Of a stretch of 64,000 bases of DNA, positions 5,122 to 53,129 are shown piece after piece. The position numbers were made by a program, and so were the translations under genes. A model generated the notes under the pieces. The model did not search any database. It was not told the DNA's origin and saw only the letters and a list, made by a program, of their open reading frames with translations. The DNA is taken from IMG/VR virus record IMGVR_UViG_3300033752_000251. The stretch is one strand, 5' to 3'. The stretch comes from an uncultured virus (IMG/VR IMGVR_UViG_3300033752_000251) (Duplodnaviria > Heunggongvirae > Uroviricota > Caudoviricetes). Position 1 is the stretch's first letter; each line of letters opens with the position of its first letter.

Positions 5122-5649
5122 ATGATAAACATGGCAAACATGTATAAAATCTATGCCCTTTACTCCAAGACGAGGAAAGTTTGCTATCTTCATGATCAGA
5201 GCCACAATGAGTTCTGGTCCCTGTATCTCAGATTCAAATATCCCAATGACAAGTGGTTTGTGATCGATACGGATTCGATTGTCTATATCGATCTGATGCA
5301 AAATAAAGAAGAAAGAGAACGCACAAAATTTATTAATCTTTACGATGACAAAGATTTTTATGCATTCAGGATCAAGAAGCAGATACTGGATGCACGTGAT
5401 ATGATGGCAAAAGAGTTCCTCAAAACAAAAATGGATGTTAAAGCAAACGATCTCTTCCTTGTCTTCAGATCTTCGCGTGGTGAGGCTGTTGTTTTATATA
5501 ATGGCCCGGATATCGATAGTGCTTTCGATATCTATGAAAGTAGAACCGGATGCGAAGGTGTTGAGTTTTGGAGAGATGGAAAGTTTATGGATACCCTGTA
5601 TACTAAAGATGACTATTATAGAAAATATCAAGCACAAAAAACTTCATAA
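5122..5649 (+). CDS. hypothetical protein
   Basis: 175-aa ORF; C-terminal YNG.D...W..K module resembles that of the previous gene. Confidence 0.7.
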   Translation: MINMANMYKIYALYSKTRKVCYLHDQSHNEFWSLYLRFKYPNDKWFVIDTDSIVYIDLMQNKEERERTKFINLYDDKDFYAFRIKKQILDARDMMAKEFLKTKMDVKANDLFLVFRSSRGEAVVLYNGPDIDSAFDIYESRTGCEGVEFWRDGKFMDTLYTKDDYYRKYQAQKTS

Positions 5650-5698
5650 ATAATAAAAAAATTATATAATTTTTTTATTATTTATGGAACTATTTAGT

Positions 5699-5937
5699 AA
5701 CCAGGACGGTCACCGGGTGTTTCGGCGGATGGCCGAGCGAAGCCCTCATGCGGTATTGCGGCACTTCCCGGAGCTGTCTGGGTTAGCGGGGATCGGTCGC
5801 TGCCCTGCGACCCGCTTTCCTGACGGCTATTTTTGCTGCGACCTCGTGCGCATAGACGGGCGCGATGGACGGTTTCCGGTGGCCGCCTGGTCGATTAAAA
5901 CTTTGATCACTAACGTTGAAGCGTTAGTGATTTTTTT
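5699..5937 (+). ncRNA. putative structured non-coding RNA (about 190-nt rod plus terminator)
   Basis: GC-rich island; 5' ACCAGG-A-CGGTCACCGG pairs with 3' CCGGTGGCCG-CCTGGT; nested helices with G-U pairs on + strand; AACT-N6-TA motif at 5688-5699; terminator 5906-5937. Confidence 0.75.
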
Positions 5938-6024
5938 AGTGTTTTTTTGTAAATTTAGTTTATAAAAATATATATTATAAACGTGAATATCAATAATAAA
6001 TAAATTCTTAGGAGGAAAATCTTC

Positions 6025-6585
6025 ATGGGAATTATTAAAATTGAAAAACCTATTTATTATAAAGATCGTTTTAAGGGAGCTTTTATACTCATTGAATATA
6101 ATGATGAGAATGGAATATTCGTTCTCGAAGAATTGCAAAGCCATCGCAGAGAAAATTTAGATTCTATCTTCTATGGTGGCATTCATGTTAACAAAACGTT
6201 CGATACAACTTCGACCCAACGAGAAGAAATTTTCAGATATTTGTATTCAATCGGTGTTAGGGCTATAGCTAGAGTCCCATTCAATCTCGCTATAGAACTA
6301 TTGTATTATAAAGCCGAAAAAGTCCAAAATCTTATCAGGCGGCTGAAAGAAATTGAAACAGATGATAATATCGTCTCCAAAGCCAATCTCATCGAAGATC
6401 CTGATGGTGAATTGAATGACTTATGCTGCGAAGCAATTTTCACTTATCAGGGATTGGCTCATCCTAAAGCTTTACAGACGCTGGAAGAGGCTGGATTTGA
6501 AGTGGTCATCATGAAAAAGGATCACTTTGGTATGCGTATTGGAGGCATTATGACAGAGAAAGGTATCGTTCAATTCTTTAAATAA
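6025..6585 (+). CDS. hypothetical protein
   Basis: AGGAGG SD, early motif at 5969. Confidence 0.75.
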   Translation: MGIIKIEKPIYYKDRFKGAFILIEYNDENGIFVLEELQSHRRENLDSIFYGGIHVNKTFDTTSTQREEIFRYLYSIGVRAIARVPFNLAIELLYYKAEKVQNLIRRLKEIETDDNIVSKANLIEDPDGELNDLCCEAIFTYQGLAHPKALQTLEEAGFEVVIMKKDHFGMRIGGIMTEKGIVQFFK

Positions 6586-9266: not shown

Positions 9267-11396
9267 ATGACTAACAATCTTAGTGATCTCTTCGACGTTG
9301 AAAGAGATAGGATTAGGTCAAAGTTTAATAATCCAGGATTCTATATGAATCGTGAATTGAGTTGGATGGAGTTCAATAAAAGGGTTCTCCATCAAACTAT
9401 GAGAACTGAGGTTCCTCTTTTGGAGAGACTTAAGTTCTTGGGTATCACGGAATCGAACCTGGATGAGTTTATTATGGTTAGATTTTCATCTATCCTTAAT
9501 AAACTCAGATTGGGGTATACAGAAACGGATATTGCTGGTCTTCTCCCGGAGCAAGAATATGAACTCTTGCTCCGGGAAATTATTTCTTTCAAAGAAATCC
9601 AGCAAGAAAGCTTTGAAAAACTGAGAAAGAAACTGCGTAAAAACAATTTCACGATTTGTAAGTTCAAGCATCTCAGTGAAAAGGAAGTTGATTATGTAAG
9701 AAAGCTTTTCGAAAGAAACATTTATCCGTTGCTGACCCCGATCACCTTTGACTCAACCAAAGAATTTCCCCTTATTAAATCTAAGCAGCTATGCATAATA
9801 GCTTCTCTAGGGGACAAGAAAAATCCAAATCTGAATGTAATGTCCATCATCCCACTCCATGGTCTTGATCGTTTGTACAAGATTGAGACTGACGAGAGCG
9901 ATGAAGAACGATATATCTTGTTGGAGGATATTATCTTTAATTTTCTCCACAAGGTATTTATCAACAAGAGTATCATCTATAGGGGATGTATGAGAATCAT
10001 TCGTGAGGCGGATATTGAAATTGAGGGAAGACGGGATATTTATATTGTCGACCGAATGAGGGAAACTCTCATTAAACGGGAGTTTAGTAAACCCATCTTC
10101 ATGGATATCGACAGTGATGTTCCTAAGGAAACCCTCAAACTTCTGACCAAAATCTTCGACATTGACAAGAGGCAAGTGTTTAAATGTGAAAACATCGTAG
10201 ACATGTCGTTTCTCTTAAGTAAGCCGATAAGAAATGCGGCTTACGAGTACGACCCGTTCAACCCTCAGTATCCAGAAGATCTGATCGGCGAGCACGATAT
10301 GTTTACTGCTATCGACAACGGCGATCTCATTCTTCATCACCCTTACGAGTCGTTCACACCGGTTATCAAATTCCTCGAACATGCGGCCGAGGATAATGAT
10401 GTCTTGGCAATCAAATTGACTCTGTATAGAGTATCTTCTGCGGAGTCCCCGATTGTCGAGGCGTTGTGTAGGGCTGCTGAAAGAGGAAAGCAGGTAAGTG
10501 TTCTTCTCGAAATTAAAGCAAGGTTTGATGAGAATAGAAATATGTCGTTGATAGAAAAACTAAAAGTATCCGGCTGTAAATTGATCTATGGTATTGAGGA
10601 GTTGAAAACACATTGTAAATTTATATTGGTTGTGAGGAAAGGAAAGAAAAATCTCAAAACGTATTGCCATATCGGTACAGGAAATTACAACGACAAGACT
10701 GCGTCAATCTATACCGATATTTCCTACTTCACATCCAGCAGCAAAATAGCGGATGACCTGTTGACGATATTTAATGTCTTGTCAGGTTTCTCCGATCCCA
10801 GAGACGAAGTGAGCAAAATTTTCTATGCTCCGTACAATCTGAGATTGAGATTGTATCAGCTTATCGATCGAGAGATCGAGAATGCTCAAAAGGGTAGACA
10901 AGCTTTCATTACGTTGAAGCTTAACTCCCTTTCTGATCTGGGTATTATCAAGAAGCTGTATGAGGCCTCTGAGCAGGGTGTCAAGATATCCATTATCTGT
11001 AGAGGTATATGCTCGATGAAGAAAATCAATTCGAACATCAGCATCAAGAGTGTTGTTGGTAGATTTCTAGAGCATAGTAGAATTTACTTCTTCTACAATA
11101 ATGGAAAGTCAGATATTTTCATTTCAAGTGCTGATATGTTGACGCGGAATTTGGACAGACGGGTTGAACTTCTGGTTCCGATTACGGACGAAAATTCCAG
11201 AAATAAACTCTTGTCTATTTTGAAAATGTATTTCCGCGACACATTCAACACCTACATTCTCAATAAAGACAATCAGTACGAACTTTTGAAAAGTCCTGTT
11301 CCATTCAATGTCCAAGAGTATTTTATGGAGCAGGCTGTCAAGAGTTTCAAATTACGCAGTATGCCGATTATGTCTCTGAAGAGCAAGAGGAAATAA
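9267..11396 (+). CDS. ppk1: polyphosphate kinase 1
   Basis: NRELSWMEFNKRVL, SNLDEFIMVR, LHHPYESF, EIKARFDE, KTHCK, HIGTGNYN, GRFLEHSRI, SSADMLTRNLDRRVE. Confidence 0.95.
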   Translation: MTNNLSDLFDVERDRIRSKFNNPGFYMNRELSWMEFNKRVLHQTMRTEVPLLERLKFLGITESNLDEFIMVRFSSILNKLRLGYTETDIAGLLPEQEYELLLREIISFKEIQQESFEKLRKKLRKNNFTICKFKHLSEKEVDYVRKLFERNIYPLLTPITFDSTKEFPLIKSKQLCIIASLGDKKNPNLNVMSIIPLHGLDRLYKIETDESDEERYILLEDIIFNFLHKVFINKSIIYRGCMRIIREADIEIEGRRDIYIVDRMRETLIKREFSKPIFMDIDSDVPKETLKLLTKIFDIDKRQVFKCENIVDMSFLLSKPIRNAAYEYDPFNPQYPEDLIGEHDMFTAIDNGDLILHHPYESFTPVIKFLEHAAEDNDVLAIKLTLYRVSSAESPIVEALCRAAERGKQVSVLLEIKARFDENRNMSLIEKLKVSGCKLIYGIEELKTHCKFILVVRKGKKNLKTYCHIGTGNYNDKTASIYTDISYFTSSSKIADDLLTIFNVLSGFSDPRDEVSKIFYAPYNLRLRLYQLIDREIENAQKGRQAFITLKLNSLSDLGIIKKLYEASEQGVKISIICRGICSMKKINSNISIKSVVGRFLEHSRIYFFYNNGKSDIFISSADMLTRNLDRRVELLVPITDENSRNKLLSILKMYFRDTFNTYILNKDNQYELLKSPVPFNVQEYFMEQAVKSFKLRSMPIMSLKSKRK

Positions 11397-11982: not shown

Positions 11983-14106
11983 TTACCACACAAGTTCGTA
12001 TTCGACATCTCTATATTTTATAATAATAGGATTTTGTGATGAAAAAGTTCCTCCTGCTTTTAATAGGGTAAAATAAGGAGAATCGCTATGTCCCACTGCT
12101 ATATATTGACCATCGGGAGAGAATGATACACCATAGCTAGTACCAGGTAATGTATAATTACTAGCTAGTTCTACATTATCTCCATTTCTTTTTAATAGAG
12201 TAAAACAAGGAGAACCCCAATGTCCTACAGCTATATATTGACCATCGGGAGAGAATGATACATCTTCGGCATTACCAGGTAATGTATAAGTACTAGCTAA
12301 TTCTACATTATCTCCATTTCTTTTTAATAGAGTAAAATAAGGAGAACCAAAATGTCCCACTGCTATATATTGACCATCGGGAGAGAATGATACACCATAG
12401 CTAGTACCAGGTAATGTATAAGTACTAGCTAATTCTACATTATCTCCATTTCTTTTTAGTAAAGTAAAATAAGGAAAACCATTATATCCTACAGCTATAT
12501 ATTGACCATCGGGAGAAAATGATACACCCAAGCCATTACTAGGTAATGTATAATTACTAGCTAGTTCTACATTATCTCCATTTCTTTTTAATAGAGTAAA
12601 ATAAGGAGAACCATGATGTCCTACAGCTATATATTGACCATCGGGAGAGAATGATACACCATAGCCACCGTCAGATAATGTATAAGTACTAGCTAATTCT
12701 ACATTATCTCCATTTCTTTTTAGTAAAGTAAAATAAGGAGAACCATAATGTGCTACAGCTATATATTTGCCATCGGGAGAGAATGATATACCTTCGGCAC
12801 CACCAGGTAATGTATAAGTACTAGCTAGTTCTACATTATCTCCATTTCTTTTTAGTAAAGTAAAATAAGGAGAACTATTATGTTCTACAGCTATATATTG
12901 ACCATCGGGAGAGAATGATACATCCAAGCTAGTAAAAGGTAATGTATAAGTACTAGCTAGTAATACTTTTTCATAATTATTCTTATAAACTAATTCTTTT
13001 ACATCTCTAAATATCTTATTACCTTTAACCTCTTCTAACTGACCATCAATTTCTTTAATAACATTTACTTTAGTTTTAATTTCGATGGCTTCTTGTACTC
13101 CATTTCTTTTTAATAGAGTAAAATAAGGAGGAGAATTAATATATCCTACAGCTATATATTGACCATCGGGAGAGAATGATACATCCATGGCGACACTAGG
13201 TAATGTATAAGTACTAGCTAGTTCTACATTATCTCCATTTCTTTTTAGTAAAGTAAAATAAGGAGAACCATAATGTGCTACAGCTATATATCGACCATCG
13301 GGAGAGAATGATACACCCAAGCCAGTACTAGGTAATGTATAAGTACTAGCTAGTTCTACATTATCTCCATTTCTTTTTAATAGAGTAAAATGAGGAGAAA
13401 CATAATGTGCTACAGCTATATATTGACCATCAGGAGAGAATGATGCATCAAAGCTATCACTAGGTAATGTATAAGTACTAGCTAGTTCTACATTATCTCC
13501 ATTTCTTTTTAGTAAAGTAAAACGAGGAGAACCAGCATGTGCTACAGCTATATATTGACCATCGGGAGAGAATGAGACAGAACGTCCAGTAGCGGATAAT
13601 GTATAAGTACTAGCTAGTTCTACATTATCTCCATTTCTTTTTAATAGAGTAAAATAAGGAGAACCATTATGTCCCACAGCTATATATTGACCATCGGGAG
13701 AGAATGCCGTACCATATCCAACATCAGGTAATGTATATTTAGTAGCTAGTTCTACATTATCTCCATTTCTTTTTAGTAAAGTAAAACCAGGAGAACCGCT
13801 ATGTCCTATAGCTATATATTGACCATCGGGAGAGAATGAGATAGAGCGTCCAGTATCGGATAATGTATAAGTACTAGCTAATTCTACATTATCTCCATTT
13901 CTTTTTAGTAAAGTAAAACGAGGAGAACCAACATGTCCTACAGCTATATATTGACCATCGGGAGAGAATGAAACACTATAGCCATAGTTAGGCAATTTAT
14001 ATGAACTAGCCGGCTCCACATTGTCATCTGTAGCAATAAATTTATTATTTAGAATATTTACTGAAACGCCTTGTCGTAGCAATTCGTGAAAATAAAGCTC
14101 TTCCAA
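11983..14106 (-). CDS. double 7-bladed WD40-like beta-propeller protein (14 x 44-aa repeats), putative receptor-binding protein
   Basis: 14 repeats of NVELASTYTLPxxxxxVSFSPDGQYIAVGHxxSPYFTLLKRNGD in two blocks of 7. Confidence 0.88.
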   Translation of the reverse strand: MEELYFHELLRQGVSVNILNNKFIATDDNVEPASSYKLPNYGYSVSFSPDGQYIAVGHVGSPRFTLLKRNGDNVELASTYTLSDTGRSISFSPDGQYIAIGHSGSPGFTLLKRNGDNVELATKYTLPDVGYGTAFSPDGQYIAVGHNGSPYFTLLKRNGDNVELASTYTLSATGRSVSFSPDGQYIAVAHAGSPRFTLLKRNGDNVELASTYTLPSDSFDASFSPDGQYIAVAHYVSPHFTLLKRNGDNVELASTYTLPSTGLGVSFSPDGRYIAVAHYGSPYFTLLKRNGDNVELASTYTLPSVAMDVSFSPDGQYIAVGYINSPPYFTLLKRNGVQEAIEIKTKVNVIKEIDGQLEEVKGNKIFRDVKELVYKNNYEKVLLASTYTLPFTSLDVSFSPDGQYIAVEHNSSPYFTLLKRNGDNVELASTYTLPGGAEGISFSPDGKYIAVAHYGSPYFTLLKRNGDNVELASTYTLSDGGYGVSFSPDGQYIAVGHHGSPYFTLLKRNGDNVELASNYTLPSNGLGVSFSPDGQYIAVGYNGFPYFTLLKRNGDNVELASTYTLPGTSYGVSFSPDGQYIAVGHFGSPYFTLLKRNGDNVELASTYTLPGNAEDVSFSPDGQYIAVGHWGSPCFTLLKRNGDNVELASNYTLPGTSYGVSFSPDGQYIAVGHSDSPYFTLLKAGGTFSSQNPIIIKYRDVEYELVW

Positions 14107-14123
14107 ATTACTTACCTCCTTTA

Positions 14124-14423
14124 TTAAGATTTTTCCCTAACTCTATATTTTCTCCCTCTACATTCGACAATAGTTGGGAAGGGGTTTGATTTAAATATAT
14201 CACTAGCCTTTAATAAGGTGAAAAGCGTGTCACGAACCGTGAATAAATTGACCAAAGGGGGAAATGACACATCATATACAATATATGATGAAATATATGA
14301 TCTTATAAGATTTAGTCCATCATCAGTATAATTGAATTTATTTTTTTTTAGTATTTTTGCTGAAGCATGTCTTTTTATTATTTCATGTAAATATAAATCT
14401 TTTATTTTAAATCCCCATATCAA
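14124..14423 (-). CDS. collapsed paralog of the propeller genes (N- and C-terminal caps with one degenerate blade); possible pseudogene
   Basis: LYLHEI..NKF..TDD...YDVSFPP...FTLLKA...IVECRGRKY matches the termini of both neighbours. Confidence 0.6.
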   Translation of the reverse strand: MIWGFKIKDLYLHEIIKRHASAKILKKNKFNYTDDGLNLIRSYISSYIVYDVSFPPLVNLFTVRDTLFTLLKASDIFKSNPFPTIVECRGRKYRVREKS

Positions 14424-16558
14424 TTAATTGTACGCATCTTATATCTTTTACCTCTATATTCAATAAAGATTGGAGGGGTTTTTGAAAAAGTTCCTCCTGC
14501 TTTTAGTAAAGTAAAATAAGGAGAACCATTATGTCCTACAGCTATATATTGACCATCAGGAGAGAATGATACACTATAGCCATCACCAGGTAATGTATAA
14601 GTACTAGCTAATTCTACATTATCTCCATTTCTTTTTAGTAAAGTAAAATAAGGAGAACCATTATGTGCTACAGCTATATATTGACCATCGGGAGAGAATG
14701 GGGCAGAGTATCCAATATTAGGTAATGTATAATTACTAGCTAATTCTACAGTATCCCCATTTCTTTTTAATAGAGTAAAATAAGGAGAACCATAATATCC
14801 TACAGCTATATATTGACCATCGGGAGAGAATGATACATTTTCGGTAGCACCAGGTAATGTATAAGTACTAGCTAGTTCTACAGTATCTCCATTTCTTTTT
14901 AATAGAGTAAAATAAGGAGAACCATAATGTCCTACAGCTATATATTGACCATCGGGAGAGAATGATACTCTCAAGCCAATATCAGGTAATGTATAATTAC
15001 TAGCTAGTTCTACATTATCTCCATTTCTTTTTAGTAAAGTAAAATGAGGAGAACCCCAATGTGCTACAGCTATATATTGACCATCGGGAGAGAATAATAC
15101 ACCATGGCCATAACTAGGTAATGTATAAGTACTAGCTAGTTCTACATTATCTCCATTTCTTTTTAATAGAGTAAAATAAGGAGAACCATAATATGCTACA
15201 GCTATATATTTACCATCAGGAGAGAATGATACACCTCCAGCATTACCAGTTAATGTATAATTACTAGCTAATTCTACATTATCTCCATTTCTTTTTAGTA
15301 AAGTAAAATAAGGAGAATCATAATGTCCTACAGCTATATATTGACCATCGGGAGAAAATGATACACCCGTGGCGATATTGGGTAATGTATAAGTATCAGC
15401 TAGTAGTACTTTTTCATAATTATTCTTATAAACTAATTCTTTTACATCTCTAAATATCTTATTACTTTTAACCTCTTTTAACTGACCATCAATTTCTTTA
15501 ATAACATTTACTTTAGTTTTAATTTCGATGGCTTCTTGTACTCCATTTCTTTTTAATAGAGTAAAATAAGGAGAACTAAAATGTCCTACAGCTATATATT
15601 GACCATCGGGAGAGAATGATACACCCGTGCCATTGCCAGGTAATGTATAAGTACTAGCTAATTCTACATTATCTCCATTTCTTTTTAGTAAAGTAAAATA
15701 AGGAGAACCATAATATCCTACAGCTATATATTGACCATCGGGAGAGAATGATACACCAAAGCCATAGTTAGATAGTGTATAAGTACTAGCTAATTCTACA
15801 TTATCTCCATTTCTTTTTAGTAAAGTAAAATAAGGAGAACCATTATGTGCTACAGCTATATATTGACCATCAGGAGAGAATGATACACCTAAGCCATCAC
15901 TAGGTAATGTATAAGTACTAGCTAGTTCTACAGTATCTCCATTTCTTTTTAATAGAGTAAAATAAGGAGAAGCATAATGCCCTACAGCTATATATTGACC
16001 ATCGGGAGAGAATGAGACAGAACGTCCAATACCAGGTAATATATAATTACTAGCTAATTCTACATTATCTCCATTTCTTTTTAGTAAAGTAAAACGAGGA
16101 GAAAGATCATATCCTACAGCTATATATTGACCATCAGGAGAGAATGATACAGAGTTTCCATTGCCAGGTAATGTATAAGTACTAGCTAATTCTACATTAT
16201 CTCCATTTCTTTTTAGTAAAGTAAAATTAGGAGAAGCAGTATGTGCTACAGCTATATATTGACCATCGGGAGAGAATGATACACCATAGCCAGTACTAGG
16301 TAATATATAATTACTAGCTAGTTTTACATTATCTCCATTTCTTTTTAATAGAGTAAAATAAGGAGAACCACTATGTCCTACAGCTATATATTGACCATCG
16401 GGAGAGAATGAGACAGAGCGTCCAGTATTAGGTAAATTATATGAACTAGCCAGCTCCACATTGTCATCTGTAGCAATAAATTCATTATTTAGCACCTCTA
16501 CAGAATCAATTTTTTTCCCAATTAACCCATGATAAATTAAATCGTTCACTTCTTTCAC
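14420..16558 (-). CDS. second double beta-propeller protein (14 x 44-aa repeats)
   Basis: same repeat unit and near-identical inter-propeller linker GVQEAIEIKTKVNVIKEIDGQL. Confidence 0.88.
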   Translation of the reverse strand: MKEVNDLIYHGLIGKKIDSVEVLNNEFIATDDNVELASSYNLPNTGRSVSFSPDGQYIAVGHSGSPYFTLLKRNGDNVKLASNYILPSTGYGVSFSPDGQYIAVAHTASPNFTLLKRNGDNVELASTYTLPGNGNSVSFSPDGQYIAVGYDLSPRFTLLKRNGDNVELASNYILPGIGRSVSFSPDGQYIAVGHYASPYFTLLKRNGDTVELASTYTLPSDGLGVSFSPDGQYIAVAHNGSPYFTLLKRNGDNVELASTYTLSNYGFGVSFSPDGQYIAVGYYGSPYFTLLKRNGDNVELASTYTLPGNGTGVSFSPDGQYIAVGHFSSPYFTLLKRNGVQEAIEIKTKVNVIKEIDGQLKEVKSNKIFRDVKELVYKNNYEKVLLADTYTLPNIATGVSFSPDGQYIAVGHYDSPYFTLLKRNGDNVELASNYTLTGNAGGVSFSPDGKYIAVAYYGSPYFTLLKRNGDNVELASTYTLPSYGHGVLFSPDGQYIAVAHWGSPHFTLLKRNGDNVELASNYTLPDIGLRVSFSPDGQYIAVGHYGSPYFTLLKRNGDTVELASTYTLPGATENVSFSPDGQYIAVGYYGSPYFTLLKRNGDTVELASNYTLPNIGYSAPFSPDGQYIAVAHNGSPYFTLLKRNGDNVELASTYTLPGDGYSVSFSPDGQYIAVGHNGSPYFTLLKAGGTFSKTPPIFIEYRGKRYKMRTIN

Positions 16559-16840
16559 CCCAATTTTTTATTAATCTATAATTTTACTCACAAACTCAAT
16601 TACAATTTGAGTTCCCGAGATTTGAGATCTCACAATTTTTTGGTTATGATGAAATAGAATTAATCATATGACATTTAAGGATATTTTTTATCTTATTATG
16701 TATCTGTTTTTGTCACGAAATTCTTATTTTTATTAATCTCTATTAACGATGGAAAAATAACTGTAATTAGGATGATATTTTTGAAGTGAATTTCAATGTA
16801 AAAAAATAAAGGATAAGGTTAAATACCTTATCCCTTATTT

Positions 16841-17590
16841 TTATTCTTCTCGCAGGAAATCTCCATCCTCATCATAAATTAAGGTTCTTGTGACTGTTTT
16901 TGTCACAGTCATACCGTCTTCTGCATAGAAGGTTATGGTTCTTGTTGTATAATTCGGAGACGACCCACCGCTAAGTTCGGTTTTTCGTGCTAATGTATTA
17001 TTTGGTCTGTAATATTCAACGATCGTGAAAATTCCATTCTCGTCTTTACCTGACCTAGAAGGAATTTCAATAATCTTCTGTTCCATCAACAGATCAGCAT
17101 ACTCTTTTGATCTGTTTTCAACTTCATCTGCAATAGCCTGGGCTTGAACAGCAATCGCCTGAGATGTTCTCTCAGGAGTCATATACTTATTACTTGCAGT
17201 TCCCTCTTCGGCTTCAGTTTTAGATGCAATGCCATAGTTCTCAACGTTTCCGAGACCTACATCTCCCTTTACGAGAGTCACTGCACCCGTCTTACCAGCA
17301 ACCGACTTCACAGGCGACAAAGCTGCAATTGCCTGGGAAGTTCTTTGTGGTGTCATGTACTTGTTACTTGCAGTTCCGGCTTCGGCTTCAGTTTTAGATG
17401 CAATACCATAGTTTTCAACATTACCAAGACCTACATCACTTTTATCAGTTCCATGTGGATTTTTAGCATCAATATGCTCTTGTACACTAAGACCGTTTGA
17501 ATCTATAATATTGGACGCTTTAGTAATTGGATGAAGCTCAACCCATCCGACACCAGGTACGTATTGTTTCTGTAGTATATTTTTTGCCAT
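16841..17590 (-). CDS. tail fibre-like protein with internal DVGLGNVENYGIASKTEAE duplication
   Basis: NPHGTDKSDVGLGNVEN and SVAGKTGAVTL fibre repeats. Confidence 0.75.
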   Translation of the reverse strand: MAKNILQKQYVPGVGWVELHPITKASNIIDSNGLSVQEHIDAKNPHGTDKSDVGLGNVENYGIASKTEAEAGTASNKYMTPQRTSQAIAALSPVKSVAGKTGAVTLVKGDVGLGNVENYGIASKTEAEEGTASNKYMTPERTSQAIAVQAQAIADEVENRSKEYADLLMEQKIIEIPSRSGKDENGIFTIVEYYRPNNTLARKTELSGGSSPNYTTRTITFYAEDGMTVTKTVTRTLIYDEDGDFLREE

Positions 17591-17807
17591 TTAAAATACC
17601 TCCGTTCTTTATATTTTGTTAATTCTCCTTATAAATACAGATAGAATAAATATTTATTACATTTTTGTTTTCCATTTAAATTTTGGTAAATATAGTTGTC
17701 TGTCTATATTATAATAGAAACTTGGCGGTCGGATGGACTTTTTAATCCATCCGACCCCAAAAAGTGTTTTTTCATTTAATTTATAGACTATTCACAAATA
17801 GATTAAA

Positions 17808-18485
17808 TTAAATTTCCTGATACCAGAAATCAGCATTTGTAGGTTCAGTACCAGAAACCACAATAGATGCAAGGTTAACAGGTTTACCATCTACTTCATT
17901 CCAATTAACATAACCCCAGGAAAGGCTTCCAGCAGTAGCCCCTGCTTTCAGCACTTTATTGTTGTTGCTGGTTCCAGTTGGAGGCACATGGAGATTACCA
18001 TCGCCAGTCGGATGTACGTACTTATTGGCGCCAGCTTCGATTCCATCGAGTTTTGCTTTATCAGCGGACGACATCAAGCCGTTATTGCTGGTAGTAGCTA
18101 CCGTTTTGTCTGCTTTTGCATTCCATGCAGCTTTTTCTGCATCAGTTACAAAACGGTGAGTCGAATCTTGAGTGATATCCGAAGCGACATGTTGATGCTC
18201 TTTAGGAGCAGCAAACGCATCAATTGCTTGCTTAACTCTCGCAGGGGTCATGTATTTATTATTTGCTGTTCCGGCTTCAGCATCAGCTTGAGAAGCGATA
18301 CCGTAGTTTTCAACATTATCAAGACCAACGTCACCTTTAACCAGTGTAACTGCACCGGTTTTACCTGCAACAGATTGTACAGGGGAAGTCGGAGTCAAAA
18401 GTCCGTTGCCATAAGTGACGGAATACCAGTTGTTATCCGCCGGAGTTGAACGAATCGTCCAGTTTATACCATCGGGAGAAGTCAT
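17808..18485 (-). CDS. orphaned C-terminal part of tail fibre fused to a short TSPDGINWT-repeat fragment
   Basis: shares the 75-bp repeat with 18886..21039; GLMSSADKAKLDGIEAGANKYVHP fibre motifs. Confidence 0.7.
   Translation of the reverse strand: MTSPDGINWTIRSTPADNNWYSVTYGNGLLTPTSPVQSVAGKTGAVTLVKGDVGLDNVENYGIASQADAEAGTANNKYMTPARVKQAIDAFAAPKEHQHVASDITQDSTHRFVTDAEKAAWNAKADKTVATTSNNGLMSSADKAKLDGIEAGANKYVHPTGDGNLHVPPTGTSNNNKVLKAGATAGSLSWGYVNWNEVDGKPVNLASIVVSGTEPTNADFWYQEI
18328..18402. repeat. 75-bp perfect direct repeat, copy 1
   Basis: identical to 20360-20434; encodes LLTPTSPVQSVAGKTGAVTLVKGDV on - strand. Confidence 0.92.
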
Positions 18486-20359
18486 GACGCGATTCCTACG
18501 CCGTACTCTCCAAGGCTCGTAAAGTCCATCGGAACTTTTCCACCCCTTCCAGCGACGGTAACGTAATCGTACTTTACGAGTACTTTAACACTATTATCGT
18601 ATAAAATTTCCCTTTTGTCACTACGAAGTCAACAAAAAGACCCCGCATTAAGCAGGGTCTAATTACACGTCTCTGCGCCTAATTAGGGTGTGTACGGCTC
18701 GCTCGTAATCTGCTCATATTCTTCTGCCGTCATAGCGTCTAATTGTACCACACTGTGCAGATTATGAGGCCCCGCCTATTCGGCGGAGCCTTACGCTTCA
18801 TAATCAAATCCGGTGATTTGTTTATATTGCTCGGCTTGGCCGCCGATGCGATCTGTATAATGAGTCCTCTCTCGTCATCACGATTTCACTCCCATGAAAC
18901 ATACCGTAAACCCGCTGTAAAGCTATTGGTGCTGATATTGGTAAACAACGCTTTAGGACTTGCTGTGGACGGGTTACCAATCTGTAGTTGAATACGGCCA
19001 GTGCTACTATTATAAATGGCGCTGATTTGTATTTCTGCATTAACGGTCGGGTCGACAATGTACAAACCATAGCCGAAGATTAGGTTTGTCGGATATCCGA
19101 TCGTGATGCTGTTAAACGGGTCTCCTTTATATTCAATGTTCCCGATTGTGAACGTAACGGGTATTTGGAACGACCCCAAAAAGTTTGTCTTGGGCGGCGT
19201 GTAATTCGCATAATAGATAATCGACGTAACATTGTTACCGGAGCCGGATCGGTTAAATGTCAGGGTTGTACTACCTACGGAAATCGGCGCATACGTACCG
19301 GTTATTCCGAACAGCGTAACCCCAGACTTGATATTGGCAGCATTAAAATTAGCGTCGTCCGTATAGACCCTTACAGTCCCGTCATGGTATCCTGCTTCCG
19401 GTGTCACATACAGACGCCCAGTTTGGCCTGTACGCGGTGCGCCATAATCATTTGTTTTGACTGGCATCGTGCCGGTTACCTTCGAGCCGTTAACATACGC
19501 CGTCCGGCCAGACAAGATTTGTGCGGCTGTTGCGGTTGCGTCGCTTGTGAATGTTCCAGATACGCCGCCGACCGTCGTACCAGCCTTGATATTGGCCGCC
19601 GTCAAGTTGGTGATATTGGCCGTGACTGTGCCGCTGCCATTGTGATAACCTGCCGGGATTGTGTACGACGCCCCCTGCGTGGTCAAGGTTTGACTGACGG
19701 CTCCATTGTTGATCATGCTGCCGGTTACCTTCGAGCCGTTAACATACGCCGTCCGGCCAGACAAGATTTGACCAGCCGTGGCTGTCGCGTCGCTAGTGAA
19801 CGTACCATCAACGCCGCCTACCGTCGCACCGGCTCGGATATTTCCTGCGGACAGATTCACGATGTCGGTCGTGACCGTGCCGGTGCCGTCGTGGTATCCC
19901 TCCGGGATCGTGTATTCTTCGCCTTGTGATGTCAGCGTTTGGGAAACCGATCCGTTATTGGGCATCGTGCCGGTGCGCTTTACTCCGCCCTGATAAAACG
20001 TCTTACCGGTCAAAACATCCCCAACAGCCGCGTTCGCGTCCTTGGAGATGTCCCGAATTTTGCTTGACAACTGCGCAAACGTGTCGCCTCCTGAAGCAGA
20101 CTGTCCCATGTCAGTGATGGCGGAAGCGATCTGATTTTTCCCATCACTGACAGATTGAAAAAGTTCATCCATTCCATCCCGGACGTTGGTAGAAGTGAAA
20201 TTCGGTGAACTAAGCGAAACTTCCGAAGCATCCGGCGCGGGTGCAAGTGCAGCAATCGCCTGCGCTGTTTTAAGCGGCGTCATGTACGCGGTATCGGACG
20301 TTCCGGCTTCTGCTTCTTCCTGTGTTGCTATTCCATAGTTTTGGACGTTTCCGAGTCCC
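18403..20359 (-). mobile_element. GC-rich captured prophage tail-fibre cassette
   Basis: sharp GC increase bounded by the direct repeat; contains fibre C-terminus, two XkdX-like remnants, terminators and a sigmaA-like promoter. Confidence 0.7.
18683..18835 (-). pseudogene. two tandem XkdX-like C-terminal remnants
   Basis: AEQYKQITGFDYEA* (ends 18791) and VVQLDAMTAEEYEQITSEPYTP* (ends 18683), each followed by a hairpin. Confidence 0.65.
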
Positions 20360-21039
20360 ACGTCACCTTTAACCAGTGTAACTGCACCGGTTTTACCTGC
20401 AACAGATTGTACAGGGGAAGTCGGAGTCAAAAGTTCTTGCCAGTTGCCAACTACGGATGCAGGTTCTGCTCTCAAAATGAATGTTTTGTTGATATCCGAT
20501 CGTACCGCGATATCACCAACTTCCGCAGTAAGACCCAGCATTTCTCCTTCGCTTCCGACAACGAAAGTATCCGAAATAGCAATTGCAGGAAGGACATTAA
20601 CATCAAGTTTACCATTGCTATCCAATACAGGCACATTACCAGCAGAAGTACCGATATCTCTGGAAGCTGCTGTACCTGCATCGGAAATCTTACTAAGAGC
20701 CAATGTAGGAATATCTGCAGATGTCAGAGCACCCCATGTTGCGGTTCCTGACGAACCGCCATATTTAAGTACCTGGTTAGGCGCACCGCCAGAAGGAATA
20801 TGTTTATTACCAGCACTAGTTGGATGAACGTATTTGTTGGCTCCTTCCTCAATGCCCGCAAGTTTATTCTTTTCTTCTGTAGTATAATCTTCAGTAGAAA
20901 GACCTTTACCTTCTTCTTTATCAACCTTTCCGGCAAGTTGCTCATCAAGACCTTCTACTAATTCCGCTTTTGTTTTTGGGTATAAATTATCCCATTCACT
21001 ACCATTCTTGTGACGAATCTGAATGTTTTTACTGCTCAT
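18886..21039 (-). CDS. tail fibre protein (mosaic: AT-rich N-terminus, GC-rich C-terminus)
   Basis: KVDKEEGKGLSTEDYT, GANKYVHP and repeated SDATATAxQILSGRTAYVNGSKVTG motifs. Confidence 0.85.
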   Translation of the reverse strand: MSSKNIQIRHKNGSEWDNLYPKTKAELVEGLDEQLAGKVDKEEGKGLSTEDYTTEEKNKLAGIEEGANKYVHPTSAGNKHIPSGGAPNQVLKYGGSSGTATWGALTSADIPTLALSKISDAGTAASRDIGTSAGNVPVLDSNGKLDVNVLPAIAISDTFVVGSEGEMLGLTAEVGDIAVRSDINKTFILRAEPASVVGNWQELLTPTSPVQSVAGKTGAVTLVKGDVGLGNVQNYGIATQEEAEAGTSDTAYMTPLKTAQAIAALAPAPDASEVSLSSPNFTSTNVRDGMDELFQSVSDGKNQIASAITDMGQSASGGDTFAQLSSKIRDISKDANAAVGDVLTGKTFYQGGVKRTGTMPNNGSVSQTLTSQGEEYTIPEGYHDGTGTVTTDIVNLSAGNIRAGATVGGVDGTFTSDATATAGQILSGRTAYVNGSKVTGSMINNGAVSQTLTTQGASYTIPAGYHNGSGTVTANITNLTAANIKAGTTVGGVSGTFTSDATATAAQILSGRTAYVNGSKVTGTMPVKTNDYGAPRTGQTGRLYVTPEAGYHDGTVRVYTDDANFNAANIKSGVTLFGITGTYAPISVGSTTLTFNRSGSGNNVTSIIYYANYTPPKTNFLGSFQIPVTFTIGNIEYKGDPFNSITIGYPTNLIFGYGLYIVDPTVNAEIQISAIYNSSTGRIQLQIGNPSTASPKALFTNISTNSFTAGLRYVSWE
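20360..20434. repeat. 75-bp perfect direct repeat, copy 2
   Basis: identical to 18328-18402. Confidence 0.92.
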
Positions 21040-21072
21040 TTCTCATCTTACCCCCTTTCTTTTACTGTTTTT

Positions 21073-21507
21073 CTATTCGCCGTCTCTGTTATTGGAATCA
21101 AACCAAAATTCGGTTGTTCCGTCGAGACTAACATTACCTATAATTATTATAATGTTGTCACCGAAATCTGGTGACTCCCCCATATTTTTAAACCAAATCA
21201 TATTCGGTTTTGGATTCGGAGGTTCTTCTTCAGATACTGGGATTACGCTAGTTGATGAAATATTGGTCATGTTTACAACTTGCCAATCATTAATATCAAA
21301 TGGACCAGTCGCCCCGGATTTTTTACAAGATAAAATCTCCTTCTTCCCAGTAGAAGGATTTACCCTAATAATTAAATCATCGGCATTATAAATTTTGGTT
21401 TCATCATACCAATCTATATCGGAATCTCCGAGAGTTATAGCGATAATTTTATCCAATGTTGTTAGGTTATTTTCGCTGAAGTTTTTTAATTTTCTTAAAG
21501 TTGCCAT
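21073..21507 (-). CDS. tail-associated hypothetical protein
   Basis: VSEEEPPNPKPNMIWFK motif typical of fibre/baseplate proteins. Confidence 0.65.
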   Translation of the reverse strand: MATLRKLKNFSENNLTTLDKIIAITLGDSDIDWYDETKIYNADDLIIRVNPSTGKKEILSCKKSGATGPFDINDWQVVNMTNISSTSVIPVSEEEPPNPKPNMIWFKNMGESPDFGDNIIIIIGNVSLDGTTEFWFDSNNRDGE

Positions 21508-21526
21508 ATAAAAATCACCCGCCTTT

Positions 21527-22147
21527 TTATTCTAAAATAATTAATATACTATGCAGTATATTTTCCAAAACCTTACCAACGTTAGAAGGATTTTCTTCAA
21601 TGTAAATACCATTTAGTGTTGCATTCATAGGCGTAGAATTAGGACTGTAATTCAATACATTAAAAATATTTGTCGATAGTTTATTTAGAGGTACAGTTTT
21701 AGTTACAGAATGAGTTTGATCATTTTCATCAACAAATTCGAATTCGAACCTGATGCTTGGAAGATCTCTTAAGATAAAAGCTTCCCCATTTACAAATTCC
21801 ATACAATCAATATCCATGGATATTAAAATTTTCGATACAGGTGAATCGCCTAAAGTAAGAGGGTTGTCAAGTATATTAGATTCATATTGTACAGTATTCG
21901 GTAGTTCTATGTGATCCAATTCCAACAGACAGAGATCACCATCGATACCAATAATACTATGACTGGATTCTAAAAAATCTATATGAGTTTTAAGACGTGA
22001 AATTTTATCATATGATATAATACGACCATCCGGTCTTTTAATCAGCATTTGACCTGTCGGTTTATGAACTAATAGTTCTTCAGGCAATGCTTCTGCCTTT
22101 CTGTCTCTACTAAGAGCAGAAACAGCAAACCTATTCATATCAGCCAT
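21527..22147 (-). CDS. putative virion structural protein
   Basis: AGGAGG SD before ATG 22147; AACA-N6-TA at 22183-22194 (-). Confidence 0.65.
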   Translation of the reverse strand: MADMNRFAVSALSRDRKAEALPEELLVHKPTGQMLIKRPDGRIISYDKISRLKTHIDFLESSHSIIGIDGDLCLLELDHIELPNTVQYESNILDNPLTLGDSPVSKILISMDIDCMEFVNGEAFILRDLPSIRFEFEFVDENDQTHSVTKTVPLNKLSTNIFNVLNYSPNSTPMNATLNGIYIEENPSNVGKVLENILHSILIILE

Positions 22148-22252
22148 GACTGTATCCTCCTTTACACAGACATCCAATAATTTATTATAATGTTTTCAAA
22201 AAAGAGAACCCCCCATACAAAAGACTTGTATAGGGGATCTCTTATTTCTTTA

Positions 22253-24901
22253 TTATAAATCCTCATCGGGGAAAACTTTAAGACCGGTAGCCATTGGATC
22301 ACTATCATCAGGATTTAAGACAGCGACGTTACCTTGAAAGATAGACGAATATCTGGTCTTATATATATCAGGAATCTGATATAAATCAGGATTAATTATT
22401 TTAATAGCTTTTATAAATTCTTCAAAGAACGCAGATCTTTCAATGGATATAATATCAACGATATCACTGATAATATCTTGCTCAATGTCATCGAGAAGAG
22501 GTTTACCTTCCATAAATGCATCTCGAAAATCTTCAATAGTTGTCCAAATAAAATTATCAAATCCGGGATTAGTACTTATATCGAAGGTAAAATATTCTGC
22601 ACCTCTGTTCTTTTGATAGATATAAAAATTCTTTACACTTTGTACATTTTTCACAAGAATAATCGTCGATGAAATAATCTCAATATTATCTTTAGTTAAT
22701 TTTCTGCCATTGACGTAGACATCAAACCATTTCAGATCAAACGGTTTATCAATGAGACCGCTCAGATCAATAAGTCCAGTATTGGGTATAGTGTTAGCAC
22801 TATAAACGACTTCATATTTATACGGTGTGTAGTCCACTACATATTCTTCCCCAATTTCTCTAGTAATACCAGGTAAAACGACGCTGGTTCCACCGTAAGT
22901 GAGAGATGGATAGAAATGAATATAGTTATTGGGAAGAAGACGCCCATTCTTAAACACTCTAATATTAGATTTATCGTTTTCTGCTGCAATTATAAGATTG
23001 AACGCTTCACCTTTATCTTCTTCATTATTAATTTTATAGTGTTTAATCTGGAAGAACTGCTTGACTCTTACAGTAATATTAACTCCTTCAAGGGATGGAT
23101 CTAATAGAGTCACATAAAATTTAGTTGGTATCTTTTTGAATGAATTTGTAGGTAATTCTATTTCAAAAACGTCTACATACGATATTTTAAATTTCGATTT
23201 ATCAATAAATTCTTGTGTTTCAGAATTAACAAAGAAGATATCGCTTGCATAAATTTGAATATTCTTATTGAGATCGACTTCTTTTTTCTCATCAACTTCA
23301 TCAAATACTATATCCTGATGAAGATCAAAGGTTTCAAATTTCTCAACTTCAATAAGACTTGTGTTGGTAATAAGAGTAATAGGAATATAATAGTATTCAT
23401 AAAAATCATCGACATAAACCTCATCAGGATAATAGTTATTACCATCAATAAAGAATCGATAATAAATTTCATCGATATTATAATATCTCCGAAGGACAAA
23501 AACATACCTAGGCTCATTAAATTCTTTCTTTTCATATTCATATTTAACTTCACTGTAGTTATTCGTCCTATATTTTTCAGCCAGATTTATATCCGAGCAA
23601 TCAATGTAGAACGAATTGGAAGTATTAACTTGCTTTATAAGATATGAGACCATTCTTGATGGATCTTTTCTAATCCATTCCTTAAGTTTATTTACTTTAT
23701 ACGTCAAATGATTAGGATGGTCTTCAGAATTGATAAAATCTTTAATACCATAGATCAATGACTCAGGATCATAATTTTTGATAATTTCCGGAACGTTAAG
23801 TGGGTAATCGTCCGCTGTCAGATTCATAGTTGCCCGGTAGAGAGCAATTTCATCTTTATATTTAGGATAACCTCCGGATACTGGAGTGTCATCGAAATAA
23901 AAAACATAGATAGTAAGATCTTCATCATCGTCATTATTTAAAATTTCATACACGTTGGGATAATACATCTTTGTTTCAATATCATGCGCGAATACTTTCT
24001 TTCCATCAGGCGTGTTTTTAAAGATAATCATATTTTCAACAGGTATCGGCATATCCATTACAGGTAATGAGAAGAATTTTTGGGTTCCCGGTAAATCAAT
24101 TTGATCAAGTAAATGCCTAAAACCAAAAATATTGAGATGCACATATCTATTCTGGAAGTCGTTGATATTTTCATCAGTAAATCTAAGCATATCTCCTGAT
24201 TTTACAGTATTTACTACTACACCCTCGAAGAGAAGATCATTATCATTGATGAAAGTCAGGTACGATTGTTCAGTACCTAAGCTGTTTTCAATATTGAATC
24301 TATTCAAGGCAAGATTATCTTTATATTTAAGCAAAACGTATCTATTAGTTGTATAGATACCGTAAGCACAGTTGGGGACAAAAAATACGGTAATGTTGGC
24401 ATCTTCAGCAAGAAGACTATCAAAAAGATCCTTAGGTATTCCATCTGTACCACTGGTGATGACATTGAAGACTAGATAGGTTTTATCTTCATCACAAAAA
24501 ATCTTTATATTATCATAGAATTTCCCGTTTATGAACACGAGAAACGTATAAGCAAATAAACTTGGGTTGGCTGCAGTATCATGGATACTAATTTCGCTGT
24601 TGTAGAATTGAGATTGTTTAAAAGCGTGTCTTTGTTTTTCGGTAATGAAATTTCTATTCAAGAAACCTACGTAAGAATTGAAACCGGTATCAGTTTTCTT
24701 TACCTTTGTCCTTACCAGATCGCTCATCTTAAGATCAAACCGATGCACATCAGCCAGATCTTTCTGTGCATCATAAAGATATTTAAATGCATTTATCTTC
24801 AGATCATGGAGAGCTTCTTCCATAGCTTTTACTTCAAAAGTGTCATATGTCATTGCATCTTTATATAATATTTCATCTGGACCAGTATATTGTCCGCTCA
24901 T
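22253..24901 (-). CDS. large putative virion (baseplate/tail) protein
   Basis: about 880 aa with repeated VF.NGR/K beta motifs; AGGAGG SD; AACT-N6-TA at 24929-24940 (-). Confidence 0.65.
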   Translation of the reverse strand: MSGQYTGPDEILYKDAMTYDTFEVKAMEEALHDLKINAFKYLYDAQKDLADVHRFDLKMSDLVRTKVKKTDTGFNSYVGFLNRNFITEKQRHAFKQSQFYNSEISIHDTAANPSLFAYTFLVFINGKFYDNIKIFCDEDKTYLVFNVITSGTDGIPKDLFDSLLAEDANITVFFVPNCAYGIYTTNRYVLLKYKDNLALNRFNIENSLGTEQSYLTFINDNDLLFEGVVVNTVKSGDMLRFTDENINDFQNRYVHLNIFGFRHLLDQIDLPGTQKFFSLPVMDMPIPVENMIIFKNTPDGKKVFAHDIETKMYYPNVYEILNNDDDEDLTIYVFYFDDTPVSGGYPKYKDEIALYRATMNLTADDYPLNVPEIIKNYDPESLIYGIKDFINSEDHPNHLTYKVNKLKEWIRKDPSRMVSYLIKQVNTSNSFYIDCSDINLAEKYRTNNYSEVKYEYEKKEFNEPRYVFVLRRYYNIDEIYYRFFIDGNNYYPDEVYVDDFYEYYYIPITLITNTSLIEVEKFETFDLHQDIVFDEVDEKKEVDLNKNIQIYASDIFFVNSETQEFIDKSKFKISYVDVFEIELPTNSFKKIPTKFYVTLLDPSLEGVNITVRVKQFFQIKHYKINNEEDKGEAFNLIIAAENDKSNIRVFKNGRLLPNNYIHFYPSLTYGGTSVVLPGITREIGEEYVVDYTPYKYEVVYSANTIPNTGLIDLSGLIDKPFDLKWFDVYVNGRKLTKDNIEIISSTIILVKNVQSVKNFYIYQKNRGAEYFTFDISTNPGFDNFIWTTIEDFRDAFMEGKPLLDDIEQDIISDIVDIISIERSAFFEEFIKAIKIINPDLYQIPDIYKTRYSSIFQGNVAVLNPDDSDPMATGLKVFPDEDL

Positions 24902-25003
24902 ATTTTCCGACCTCCTATAAAACATATTTACTATAAAGTTCTACTAAACAGAAGATTAGAAAAAAATAAAGGATATCACCTTATGGCGATATCCTTTATT
25001 TTA

Positions 25004-36368: not shown

Positions 36369-36633
36369 TAAAAGATCCTACGGAATATTCCGTAGGATCT
36401 TTTAACCGAAAAAAATTAATAAATATTTCGAATCTATATTATAAGGCCAGAAAGAAAATAAATAATATTCTGTAAAGGAGAGATTAATATCGATTAATTT
36501 CACCTAGCGGATCGTAGAAAAATTGCAGTATTTTATTATTTGCGAAACTAATTATTAAGGTCTCAAGAGTAAGTTTAATTAAAACTTACTTTGGAGAAAA
36601 CAAAAAAATAACCAAATTAAGGAGGAATACTAG

Positions 36634-49500: not shown

Positions 49501-49600
49501 TTAATTCTAGCGATCTCTGAAAAAATATAAACCCCAAAACAAATATATATTATCATCAAGTCTAAAATAATAATATTCTATGGTAAGGAGAGATCAACGA

Positions 49601-53020: not shown

Positions 53021-53129
53021 TAACGTAATGGTAAGACCAGATGCTCTTCTGCATCTGGTCTTACCTATTTTTTTTCTTTTTATTATATGAGGAACTTTAT
53101 ATTAAACTATATAACGAATAGGAGGAAGT

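Follow-up and report, generated by a model that had tools for sequence, protein, structure and literature searches.

An abundant orphan non-coding RNA of an AR9/PBS1-like jumbo phage and its comparison with 6S and viral decoy RNAs

The closest described counterparts of the RNA presented here, which is encoded on the + strand at positions 5699-5891 of a 64,000-nucleotide (nt) stretch of DNA from an uncultured virus of the Caudoviricetes (IMG/VR record IMGVR_UViG_3300033752_000251; the whole stretch is hereafter called the window), are the 6S RNAs (Rfam family RF00013, including the Bacillus-type 6S-1 and 6S-2), the VA RNA I of adenovirus and the EBERs of herpesviruses, the pRNA of the phi29 family, and the T4 species 1 and 2 and GOLLD/ROOL RNAs. 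VA RNA I and the EBERs are virus-encoded, GC-rich RNAs of 160-190 nt with a rod-like architecture made of a terminal stem, a central domain and an apical stem, which are transcribed from their own promoter, reach an extreme copy number and serve as protein decoys. The pRNAs of the phi29 family are phage-encoded, abundant RNAs of 120-174 nt, which combine paired ends with a three-way junction and show little conservation in sequence. The T4 species 1 and 2 RNAs and the GOLLD/ROOL RNAs are phage-borne structured RNAs devoid of any known role. To our knowledge, few stable RNAs encoded by phages are understood besides the tRNAs. With respect to jumbo phages, a 2026 review (PMC13282480) states no more than that non-coding RNAs with a possible regulatory role are expressed by phiKZ.

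The element encoded in the window is a real, single-copy, very abundant and lineage-specific non-coding RNA (ncRNA), and it is an orphan in everything that was searched, i.e., Rfam, IMG/VR, 938 Bacillota genomes, plasmids and AR9. It is best understood, with somewhat better than even confidence, as a stand-alone gene for a stable, structured ncRNA of about 192 nt on the + strand, organized as a lineage-specific promoter-RNA-terminator cassette in one AR9/PBS1-like jumbo phage, the product of which would act in trans as a decoy. According to this scheme, a polymerase that is probably encoded by the phage would start transcription at A5699 from a composite promoter motif, the primary transcript would end at an intrinsic terminator and then be trimmed to the blunt closing helix, and the mature RNA would bind and hold a protein, by analogy with 6S RNA or adenovirus VA RNA.

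Compared to VA RNA I and the EBERs, the likeness is one of kind only (viral origin, size, GC-rich rod, own promoter, abundance), whereas these RNAs come from eukaryotic viruses, are transcribed from promoters of RNA polymerase III and act on established targets (PKR, La and others). Like the phi29 pRNA, the present RNA is phage-encoded, abundant and structured with paired ends, but the pRNA belongs to small protein-primed podoviruses and the present RNA, which has no match in Rfam, to a 212-kb AR9-like jumbo phage; in addition, a packaging part could not be missing from the relatives of the phage, as this RNA is. It shares with the T4 species 1 and 2 and GOLLD/ROOL RNAs the character of a phage-borne structured RNA, and a promoter of the same class drives tRNA genes in a relative of the phage. 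In contrast to them, it does not lie beside tRNA genes, the three tRNA genes of the phage being located elsewhere, and compared to GOLLD and ROOL it is far smaller and unmatched in Rfam. With respect to the 6S RNAs, the common points consist of a length of about 190 nt, ends paired in a closing helix, a long irregular hairpin, abundance and apparent stability, together with the helix-loop-arm layout of the fold predicted for the present RNA at 60 °C. It differs from them by a GC content of 66%, versus 48-50% in the 6S RNAs of the Paenibacillaceae, by a side hairpin at a junction that may be closed at 37 °C, and by its phage origin and confinement to one lineage. A decoy role like that of 6S RNA would be plausible, by analogy, for a phage equipped with RNA polymerases of its own.

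The GC-rich island and its fold

The window is AT-rich, with a mean GC content of 36.7% (0.367). A first, sequence-only reading of this DNA had pointed to a GC-rich island of about 190 nt at 5700-5891, and its composition fully agrees with that description: the island has 65.6% GC compared to 32% and 26% in its two flanks, the 100-nt windows over 5700-5899 range from 62 to 66% versus 15-37% for the adjoining ones, and the highest GC content of any 120-nt segment of the 64-kb window is found in the island (0.68, the 99.9th percentile being 0.64). Folding of the + strand yields -98.0 kcal/mol (z -2.94), a value equalled by 1 out of 200 shuffled sequences, versus -77.9 kcal/mol (z -1.68) for the - strand, equalled by 12 out of 200. 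In its rod-shaped form the RNA comprises 61 pairs, of which 42 are G-C, 13 A-U and 6 G-U. The earlier argument that the G-U pairs favour the + strand holds, since the rod scores -95.0 on this strand versus -86.5 on the opposite one, a gain of 8.5 kcal/mol.

Three elements make up the rod. The closing helix associates a 5' strand (5700-5717, +), in which A5706 is bulged, with a 3' strand (5875-5891, +). A side hairpin, UCGGC-GGAUG-GCCGA (5722-5736, +), is located at the junction (or bubble) where the closing helix meets the long arm, and its loop (5727-5731) is unpaired with a probability above 0.7 at both 37 and 60 °C. The long, irregular apical arm (5742-5861, +), as it occurs in the rod model and in the minimum free energy (MFE) fold at 60 °C, is built from the helices GCCC/GGGC, AUGCG/CGCAU, UUGCGGCA/UGCUGCGA and AGCUGUC/GACGGCU, and ends in an apical hairpin with the loop UGCCCU at 5801-5806. 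All of the helices listed in the sequence-only reading do exist, but the overall rod is the MFE structure only at 60 °C (-60.8), where an internal loop of 24 nt on the 5' side (including the hairpin) and 13 nt on the 3' side separates the closing helix from the arm. At 37 °C the rod lies 1.6-3 kcal/mol above a branched alternative; the MFE fold at this temperature closes much of the central loop to give a multi-branch junction, and the basal part of the arm competes with a local hairpin at 5842-5868.

A variant of the locus comes from a twin phage (L035, 99% identical), which displays three differences at the RNA, A5712G, a 1-nt deletion at 5830 and C5892T. The first converts an A-U pair of the closing helix into a G-U pair, the second falls in an unpaired run of U, and the third is located just outside the helix, so that the fold is kept by all three. 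The deletion at 5830 also occurs in the RNA contigs of two sequencing runs (X17 and X18, described below) and as a minor form in a third (X15). It bears directly on an open reading frame (ORF) of 93 amino acids (aa) that overlaps the island (5684-5965, +), the conservation of which had been proposed as a check on the RNA. That the stretch encodes a protein of this length is extremely improbable: the open frame does exist, but it lacks a ribosome-binding site of the Shine-Dalgarno type, no frame of the region matches any PHROG or Pfam family, and the deletion shifts the frame, leaving 56 aa both in the 99% twin and in the RNA contigs. The ORF was consequently rejected as a gene; since the deletion shifts its frame in both the twin and the RNA contigs, the comparison favours the RNA.

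Transcripts, promoter and terminator

The stretch is represented, in full or in part, in twenty public sequencing runs, six of which are RNA libraries. The contigs of four of these (X15 to X18, leaving aside X19 and X20) were examined; the RNA is present in all four metatranscriptomes. The discrete transcript expected from the sequence-only reading accordingly finds a counterpart in contigs of nearly the predicted length, a single one of 184 nt in X16 (5707-5890), a single one of 180 nt in X18 (5709-5889, depth 1210) and a single one of 230 nt in X17 (5659-5890). X15 contains many short contigs within 5713-5866, whose depth is 13,208-25,000 and whose bin sums attain 137,851, whereas the contigs of the flanking genes, of 1533 nt and 547 nt, have depths of 38.6 and 47, which puts the RNA at 300-3000 times its flanks in this library. 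Coverage in X16 and X18 is confined to the RNA, the uncovered parts (the flanks in these two runs, and the terminator at 5906-5929) not being counted as evidence of absence.

The contigs of three runs, from three studies that represent two campaigns judging by year and habitat, end at 5889/5890 with the DNA continuing beyond, thus one or two bases before the end of the closing helix. This is a weak hint that 5889/5890 corresponds to a 3' end, trimmed from the terminator back to the helix. The same contigs bear on the idea that the RNA is a 3'-untranslated region or another cis-acting element of the upstream operon, acting as a stabilising structure or arising as a processed 3' fragment, which we consider unlikely. 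The upstream 175-aa gene, whose stop codon is at 5649, is not separated from the RNA by any terminator, the X17 contig runs across this interval from 5659, and an upstream contig of X15 reaches 5675. Against this idea, the RNA exceeds the upstream gene 300-3000-fold in contig depth in X15 and is covered on its own in X16 and X18; it possesses its own conserved promoter motif, which ends exactly at the foot of the helix, and the orthologous upstream gene in a related locus (L037, see below) does without it.

The X15 contigs exhibit heavy, fixed ends at 5713 and 5866, which run into foreign letters with a different tail at each end. We take these letters to be two different Illumina adapter tails; the occurrence of one kind of adapter per end then means one dominant orientation, and with the usual stranded protocol, in which the first mate reads the - strand, the RNA would be the + strand. 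The two ends may be real processing sites. They equally fit library artefacts of a stable helix, with reverse transcriptase stopping a few nt into the helix on one side and the last primable unpaired stretch on the other. A functional form in which a core of about 150-165 nt is excised from the closing helix and ligated, perhaps to a circle, would account for these ends but is quite unlikely, because no head-to-tail joint occurs in the contigs of the four RNA runs, the ends have the artefactual explanation just given, and Rfam reveals no ribozyme, intron or ligase context. Moreover, the palindrome CCGG occurs at both 5713-5716 and 5876-5879, where the foot of the helix is paired, so that a joint of 5713-5875 (163 nt) would fall in a 4-nt microhomology, which is typical of template switching by reverse transcriptase.

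The promoter attributed to the RNA is a composite motif of 27 nt, TTTTATTATWT-N3-RAACT-N6-TA (5673-5699, +). According to the AR9 study, the late promoters of that phage follow the consensus AACA-(6N)-TA/G, the last base of which is the transcription start (PMC5312081), and by analogy A5699, the last A of the composite motif, is the predicted +1; the core AACT-(6N)-TA of the RNA departs from the late consensus by one base. The earlier proposal that an AACT-N6-TA element (5688-5699) places +1 at 5699 stands only in part. The element is present, but taken alone it is not enriched, 7 out of 59 sites being intergenic versus 11% expected, and it becomes significant only within the composite motif. 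The AACA-N6-TA form of AR9, by comparison, is enriched in the intergenic DNA of the phage (13 out of 41 sites versus 11% expected). The composite motif occurs in three exact copies in the window (5673-5699, 36531-36557 and 53078-53104), and with up to three mismatches it gives six matches versus a mean of 1.87 in shuffled sequences, none of 100 shuffles reaching six. In 162 kb of the same phage (G001, which begins at window position 13931 and brings the covered part of the phage to about 176 kb in all), no copies were found besides those at 36531 and 53078.

Similar sites occur in related phages. The 247-kb relative G004 harbours three near-identical sites, with two mismatches each and an AACA core, two of which precede the genes for tRNA-Ser(tga) and tRNA-Ser(gct), at distances of 13 and 9 nt, respectively; the third precedes a 450-nt stretch free of ORFs. 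In another relative, G006, a copy with two mismatches lies about 150-160 nt before the orthologue of a 170-aa gene located behind copy two of the motif in the window. In three other relatives, matches with two mismatches are no commoner than those of a reversed-pattern control. Judging from these occurrences, the composite motif is a conserved and probably strong class of phage promoter, with its predicted +1 at the foot of the closing helix. As both the tRNA genes of a relative and a conserved GC-rich gene of the present phage are driven by it, it marks strongly expressed units in this group of phages.

The units found behind the other sites deserve a description of their own. The 170-aa gene behind the second copy (36634-37146, +) has 60% GC in a phage of 37% GC and is kept in all five related jumbo phages, without belonging to any Pfam family; its product is likely a very highly expressed core protein. 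Behind the third copy, and preceded by a strong ribosome-binding site, a small ORF (53130-53336, +) encodes a four-cysteine zinc ribbon (CPTC ... CDDC) and is broken by one in-frame TGA at 53184-53186, which could reflect read-through, recoding or a broken gene. The ORF-free stretch of G004 (G004:C1 ~204780-205230, +; L127 1527-1975) extends over about 450 nt behind the motif with no ORF of more than 50 aa. It folds better than its shuffles (z -2.29), matches no Rfam family, shows no sequence relationship with the RNA of the window, and represents a candidate for a large phage ncRNA. The cluster of tRNA-Thr, tRNA-Met and tRNA-Leu genes of the present phage (G001:C1:108961-109224, -; L129) is located about 3.5 kb past the window end, directly after an ORF and without the composite motif.

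At its other end the RNA is followed, as had been stated in the sequence-only reading, by an intrinsic terminator made of a 12-pair stem (5905-5932) and a run of T (5905-5939 as a whole, +), a region not covered by the RNA contigs examined. Beyond it, a perfect match to the AR9 early consensus, given as AAATATATATTAT-(6N)-G in the AR9 study (PMC5312081), is found at 5966-5985 (+) before the next gene (6025-6585). Since a terminator and then a perfect early promoter directly follow the RNA, it forms a unit of its own between two operons. The 186-aa gene located downstream, which is thus provided with its own early promoter, has no known relative (ORFan).

Distribution and relationship to known families

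The distribution of the RNA was followed through a conserved 425-aa protein encoded near it, the cultured relatives of which are confined to AR9, PBS1, Staphylococcus jumbo phages and phiR1-37 (21-24% identity, 20 records). This neighbour has 241 relatives, and the DNA was compared for 27 IMG/VR and 13 metagenome loci. None of the 27 IMG/VR loci (31-53% identity) shows a GC island or a BLAST match, and among the 13 metagenome loci, some of which include little upstream DNA, the island occurs only in the phage itself and in its 99% twin; ten of these metagenome loci belong to more distant relatives, and they give no BLAST match either. The metagenome locus L037 (67% identity) is informative in this respect: the 175-aa gene has an orthologue there (31% identity, E 6e-28), behind which only 11 nt separate it from an unrelated gene; a thioredoxin gene and the orthologue of the 425-aa protein come next, with no island at the site. 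The thioredoxin-like gene (L037 3613-3930), whose CGPC motif was read by eye, stands where the phage has the RNA cassette and the ORFan. Since L037 carries other genes at this place, the RNA cassette and the 186-aa ORFan are lineage-specific insertions in a variable accessory slot.

The covariance model R1, which was built from the RNA, scores 255 bits on it and was run on genomes without a positive control, recovers a single copy in the window, and no second copy exists in the other 162 kb of the phage. It finds nothing in five related jumbo phage genomes, four of them complete, nor in AR9 or in 22 further loci. Nothing convincing appears in 136 Paenibacillaceae genomes, where the best match reaches 20.8 bits and the two best ones share what looks like a stretch of a conserved gene. 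BLAST searches of 50,697 phage records and of plasmids yielded no homologue. Among 401 Bacilli genomes, only matches of 17-42 nt were obtained at E<=0.1, in 44 genomes; six of them were inspected, of which three share one coding-like context, at the side hairpin. A further 401 Bacillota genomes gave no match at E<=1e-4, and a 29-mer of the RNA is absent from 185,579 species genomes. Five scans of IMG/VR with exact patterns of 17-36 nt retrieved the phage itself and 33+2+2 chance matches only, to which R1 gives at most 15 bits or no score.

The island could alternatively be a feature of the DNA itself, i.e., a horizontally acquired GC-rich remnant or a palindromic mobile insertion that is incidentally transcribed. 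Its restriction to one lineage, its GC content far above that of the phage, its 17-nt imperfect inverted ends and its want of homologues would suit such an origin, to which we assign a low likelihood: the window contains a single copy and the remaining 162 kb of the phage none, no donor came to light in the 185,579 species genomes (29-mer), the 401 Bacilli and 401 Bacillota genomes, the plasmids or the phages, and both the strand asymmetry of the pairing and the very high RNA level are unexpected of inert DNA. An origin as a repeated palindrome resembling a miniature inverted-repeat transposable element was rejected on the same grounds, namely the single copy in the window, its absence from the 162 kb and the IMG/VR scans, which returned the phage itself and chance matches only.

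The membership of the RNA in known families was addressed with Rfam 15, as the sequence-only reading had proposed, and the outcome agrees with its suggestion of an RNA outside the known families. The whole 64-kb window gives no match at the gathering threshold, the 601 nt around the RNA give noise only at E<=10, and on 201 nt of the RNA the best + strand match is Hrs13 with 13.6 bits versus a cut-off of 52. No family of Rfam, which includes ribozymes, riboswitches, SRP, RNase P, Y RNA, pRNA, omega/HEARO and a VA model, matched the RNA. The previously noted lack of tRNA, signal recognition particle and hammerhead motifs was likewise borne out, ARAGORN finding no tRNA or tmRNA gene in the window and Rfam being silent.

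The likeness to 6S RNA, by contrast, is limited to size, paired ends and general shape, and did not withstand a direct comparison. RF00013 gives no match at E<=10 on either 601 or 201 nt (gathering score 46.4 bits), yet as a positive control it finds 6S RNA in three out of three Paenibacillaceae genomes, the likely host family, with 74.2-95 bits; besides, the RNA has no sequence likeness to the 6S RNAs of the Paenibacillaceae (z 0.97, 1.11 and -0.13). Since RF00013 is silent here but detects the 6S RNA of the host family, and no sequence is shared, the RNA is not a member of the 6S family. A functional counterpart is a separate matter. As a 6S-type decoy of the host sigma-A RNA polymerase, the RNA would shut off host transcription, its closing helix standing for downstream DNA, the junction with the side hairpin for the open bubble and the long arm for upstream DNA. 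Its length of about 190 nt, its helical ends and great abundance, and the rod predicted as the MFE fold at 60 °C with an internal loop of 24 nt (including the hairpin) over 13 nt are in line with such a role, as is a phage that encodes split beta and beta' subunits and uses AR9-type promoters. We nevertheless hold it to be doubtful in view of the failure of RF00013, which scores 74-95 bits in the three host-family genomes, the lack of sequence likeness to the Paenibacillaceae 6S RNAs, the 37 °C fold, which is a multi-branch junction instead of an open bubble, and the absence of the RNA from all five related jumbo phages and from AR9.

Other kinships and partners were considered and discarded. 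A tRNA remnant, suggested by the resemblance of the side hairpin to a D-arm, was rejected because ARAGORN finds none and the corresponding 17-mer occurs in 33 other viral contigs, in none of them as part of a tRNA. A hammerhead reading of the three-way junction fails by eye, as its strands are incompatible with the hammerhead core, and Rfam gives no match to it. The UGUU of the junction, as a mimic of the template-strand promoter element of AR9, is a chance 4-mer with an unfit spacing. Neither of two genes considered qualifies as encoding a partner of the RNA: the downstream 186-aa gene is an ORFan with its own early promoter, and the 170-aa gene is kept in five out of five relatives devoid of the RNA. 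Antisense or sponge targets within the window do not exceed 11 nt, and the CsrA-type GGA motifs, five by eye, are about as numerous as expected from the composition by a rough estimate. A literature search confined to titles and the openings of abstracts found no description of a phage-encoded 6S-like RNA or of the present RNA.

Phage setting and possible role

The window, which is 100% identical over 6036 nt to a 212-kb IMG/VR contig, derives from an AR9-like jumbo phage. It encodes split beta' and beta fragments of RNA polymerase (727-2142 and 54657-56933), a tubulin (49580-50722), the gyrase subunits A and B, a DnaB-like helicase, an NAD ligase, a polyphosphate kinase and an amidase with S-layer-homology domains. 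The host is probably a Paenibacillus-like bacterium; the best named relative of the amidase comes from Paenibacillus silviterrae (51% identity), a sequence likeness that serves as a hint to the host and no more. The core of the AR9 early promoter, TATATATTAT, has 15 exact occurrences in the window, with sites including 5969, 641, 9218 and 40677, and it is retained letter for letter as in AR9 although the shared proteins are about 23% identical. Among the other genes, the polyphosphate kinase 1 (9267-11396, +) is full-length with all four PPK domains, and two paralogues of about 710 aa built from beta-propeller repeats of the WD40/PD40 type (11983-14106 and 14420-16558, both -) contain internal DNA repeats, GAACTAGCTAGTAA occurring three times.

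Several points weigh against a stand-alone, trans-acting ncRNA gene. Only two distinct sequences of the RNA exist, 98% alike, for which reason the structure rests on thermodynamics and not on a covariation statistic, and the RNA is no more conserved than its flanks, with 3 changes in 195 nt compared to 99.1% identity over 3466 nt. Contig depth, from which the ratios reported above were taken, is a poor measure of expression, RNA libraries may contain DNA, and true ends cannot be read from contigs. The X17 contig begins 40 nt before the predicted +1, which means that the RNA is also reached by transcripts reading through from the upstream gene, or by DNA. As for the promoter, the other two copies of the composite motif in the phage precede protein genes, and a sigma-70-like sequence, TTCATA-16-TATAAT (5643-5670, +), lies about 30 nt upstream of the predicted start at A5699; it is a possible host-type promoter for which the evidence is weak, four such sites occurring in 800 nt versus 2.8 expected. 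Finally, the decoy mechanism itself is proposed by analogy only.

With these points taken into account, and by analogy, the most likely role of the RNA would still be that of a trans-acting protein decoy, with the host RNA polymerase as one candidate among several. If it is a decoy, the host RNA polymerase holoenzyme would account for a minor share of the likelihood as the protein bound, a host defence or RNA-processing protein for a share of about the same size, and something else for the rest. A more far-reaching possibility, also drawn from analogy and held with little confidence, is that a jumbo phage that transcribes its genome with sigma-independent polymerases of its own acquired a massively expressed decoy RNA, either a counterpart of VA RNA or a non-homologous mimic of 6S RNA, representing a new RNA family. 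Such a decoy may sequester a host protein, for instance an RNase, the sigma-A holoenzyme, or a sensor or nuclease of a defence system; further processing at the base of the closing helix, perhaps to a circular form, may also take place.

The locus offers a clean case among phage-encoded RNAs, a single-copy cassette with a promoter and a terminator, an extreme RNA level in environmental samples and no known family, in a group whose close relatives differ by the presence or absence of the RNA. The composite promoter motif provides a marker of strongly expressed units in this uncultured group of phages. If it is true that the RNA holds a host protein, it would constitute a new means by which phages gain control of a cell or disarm it.

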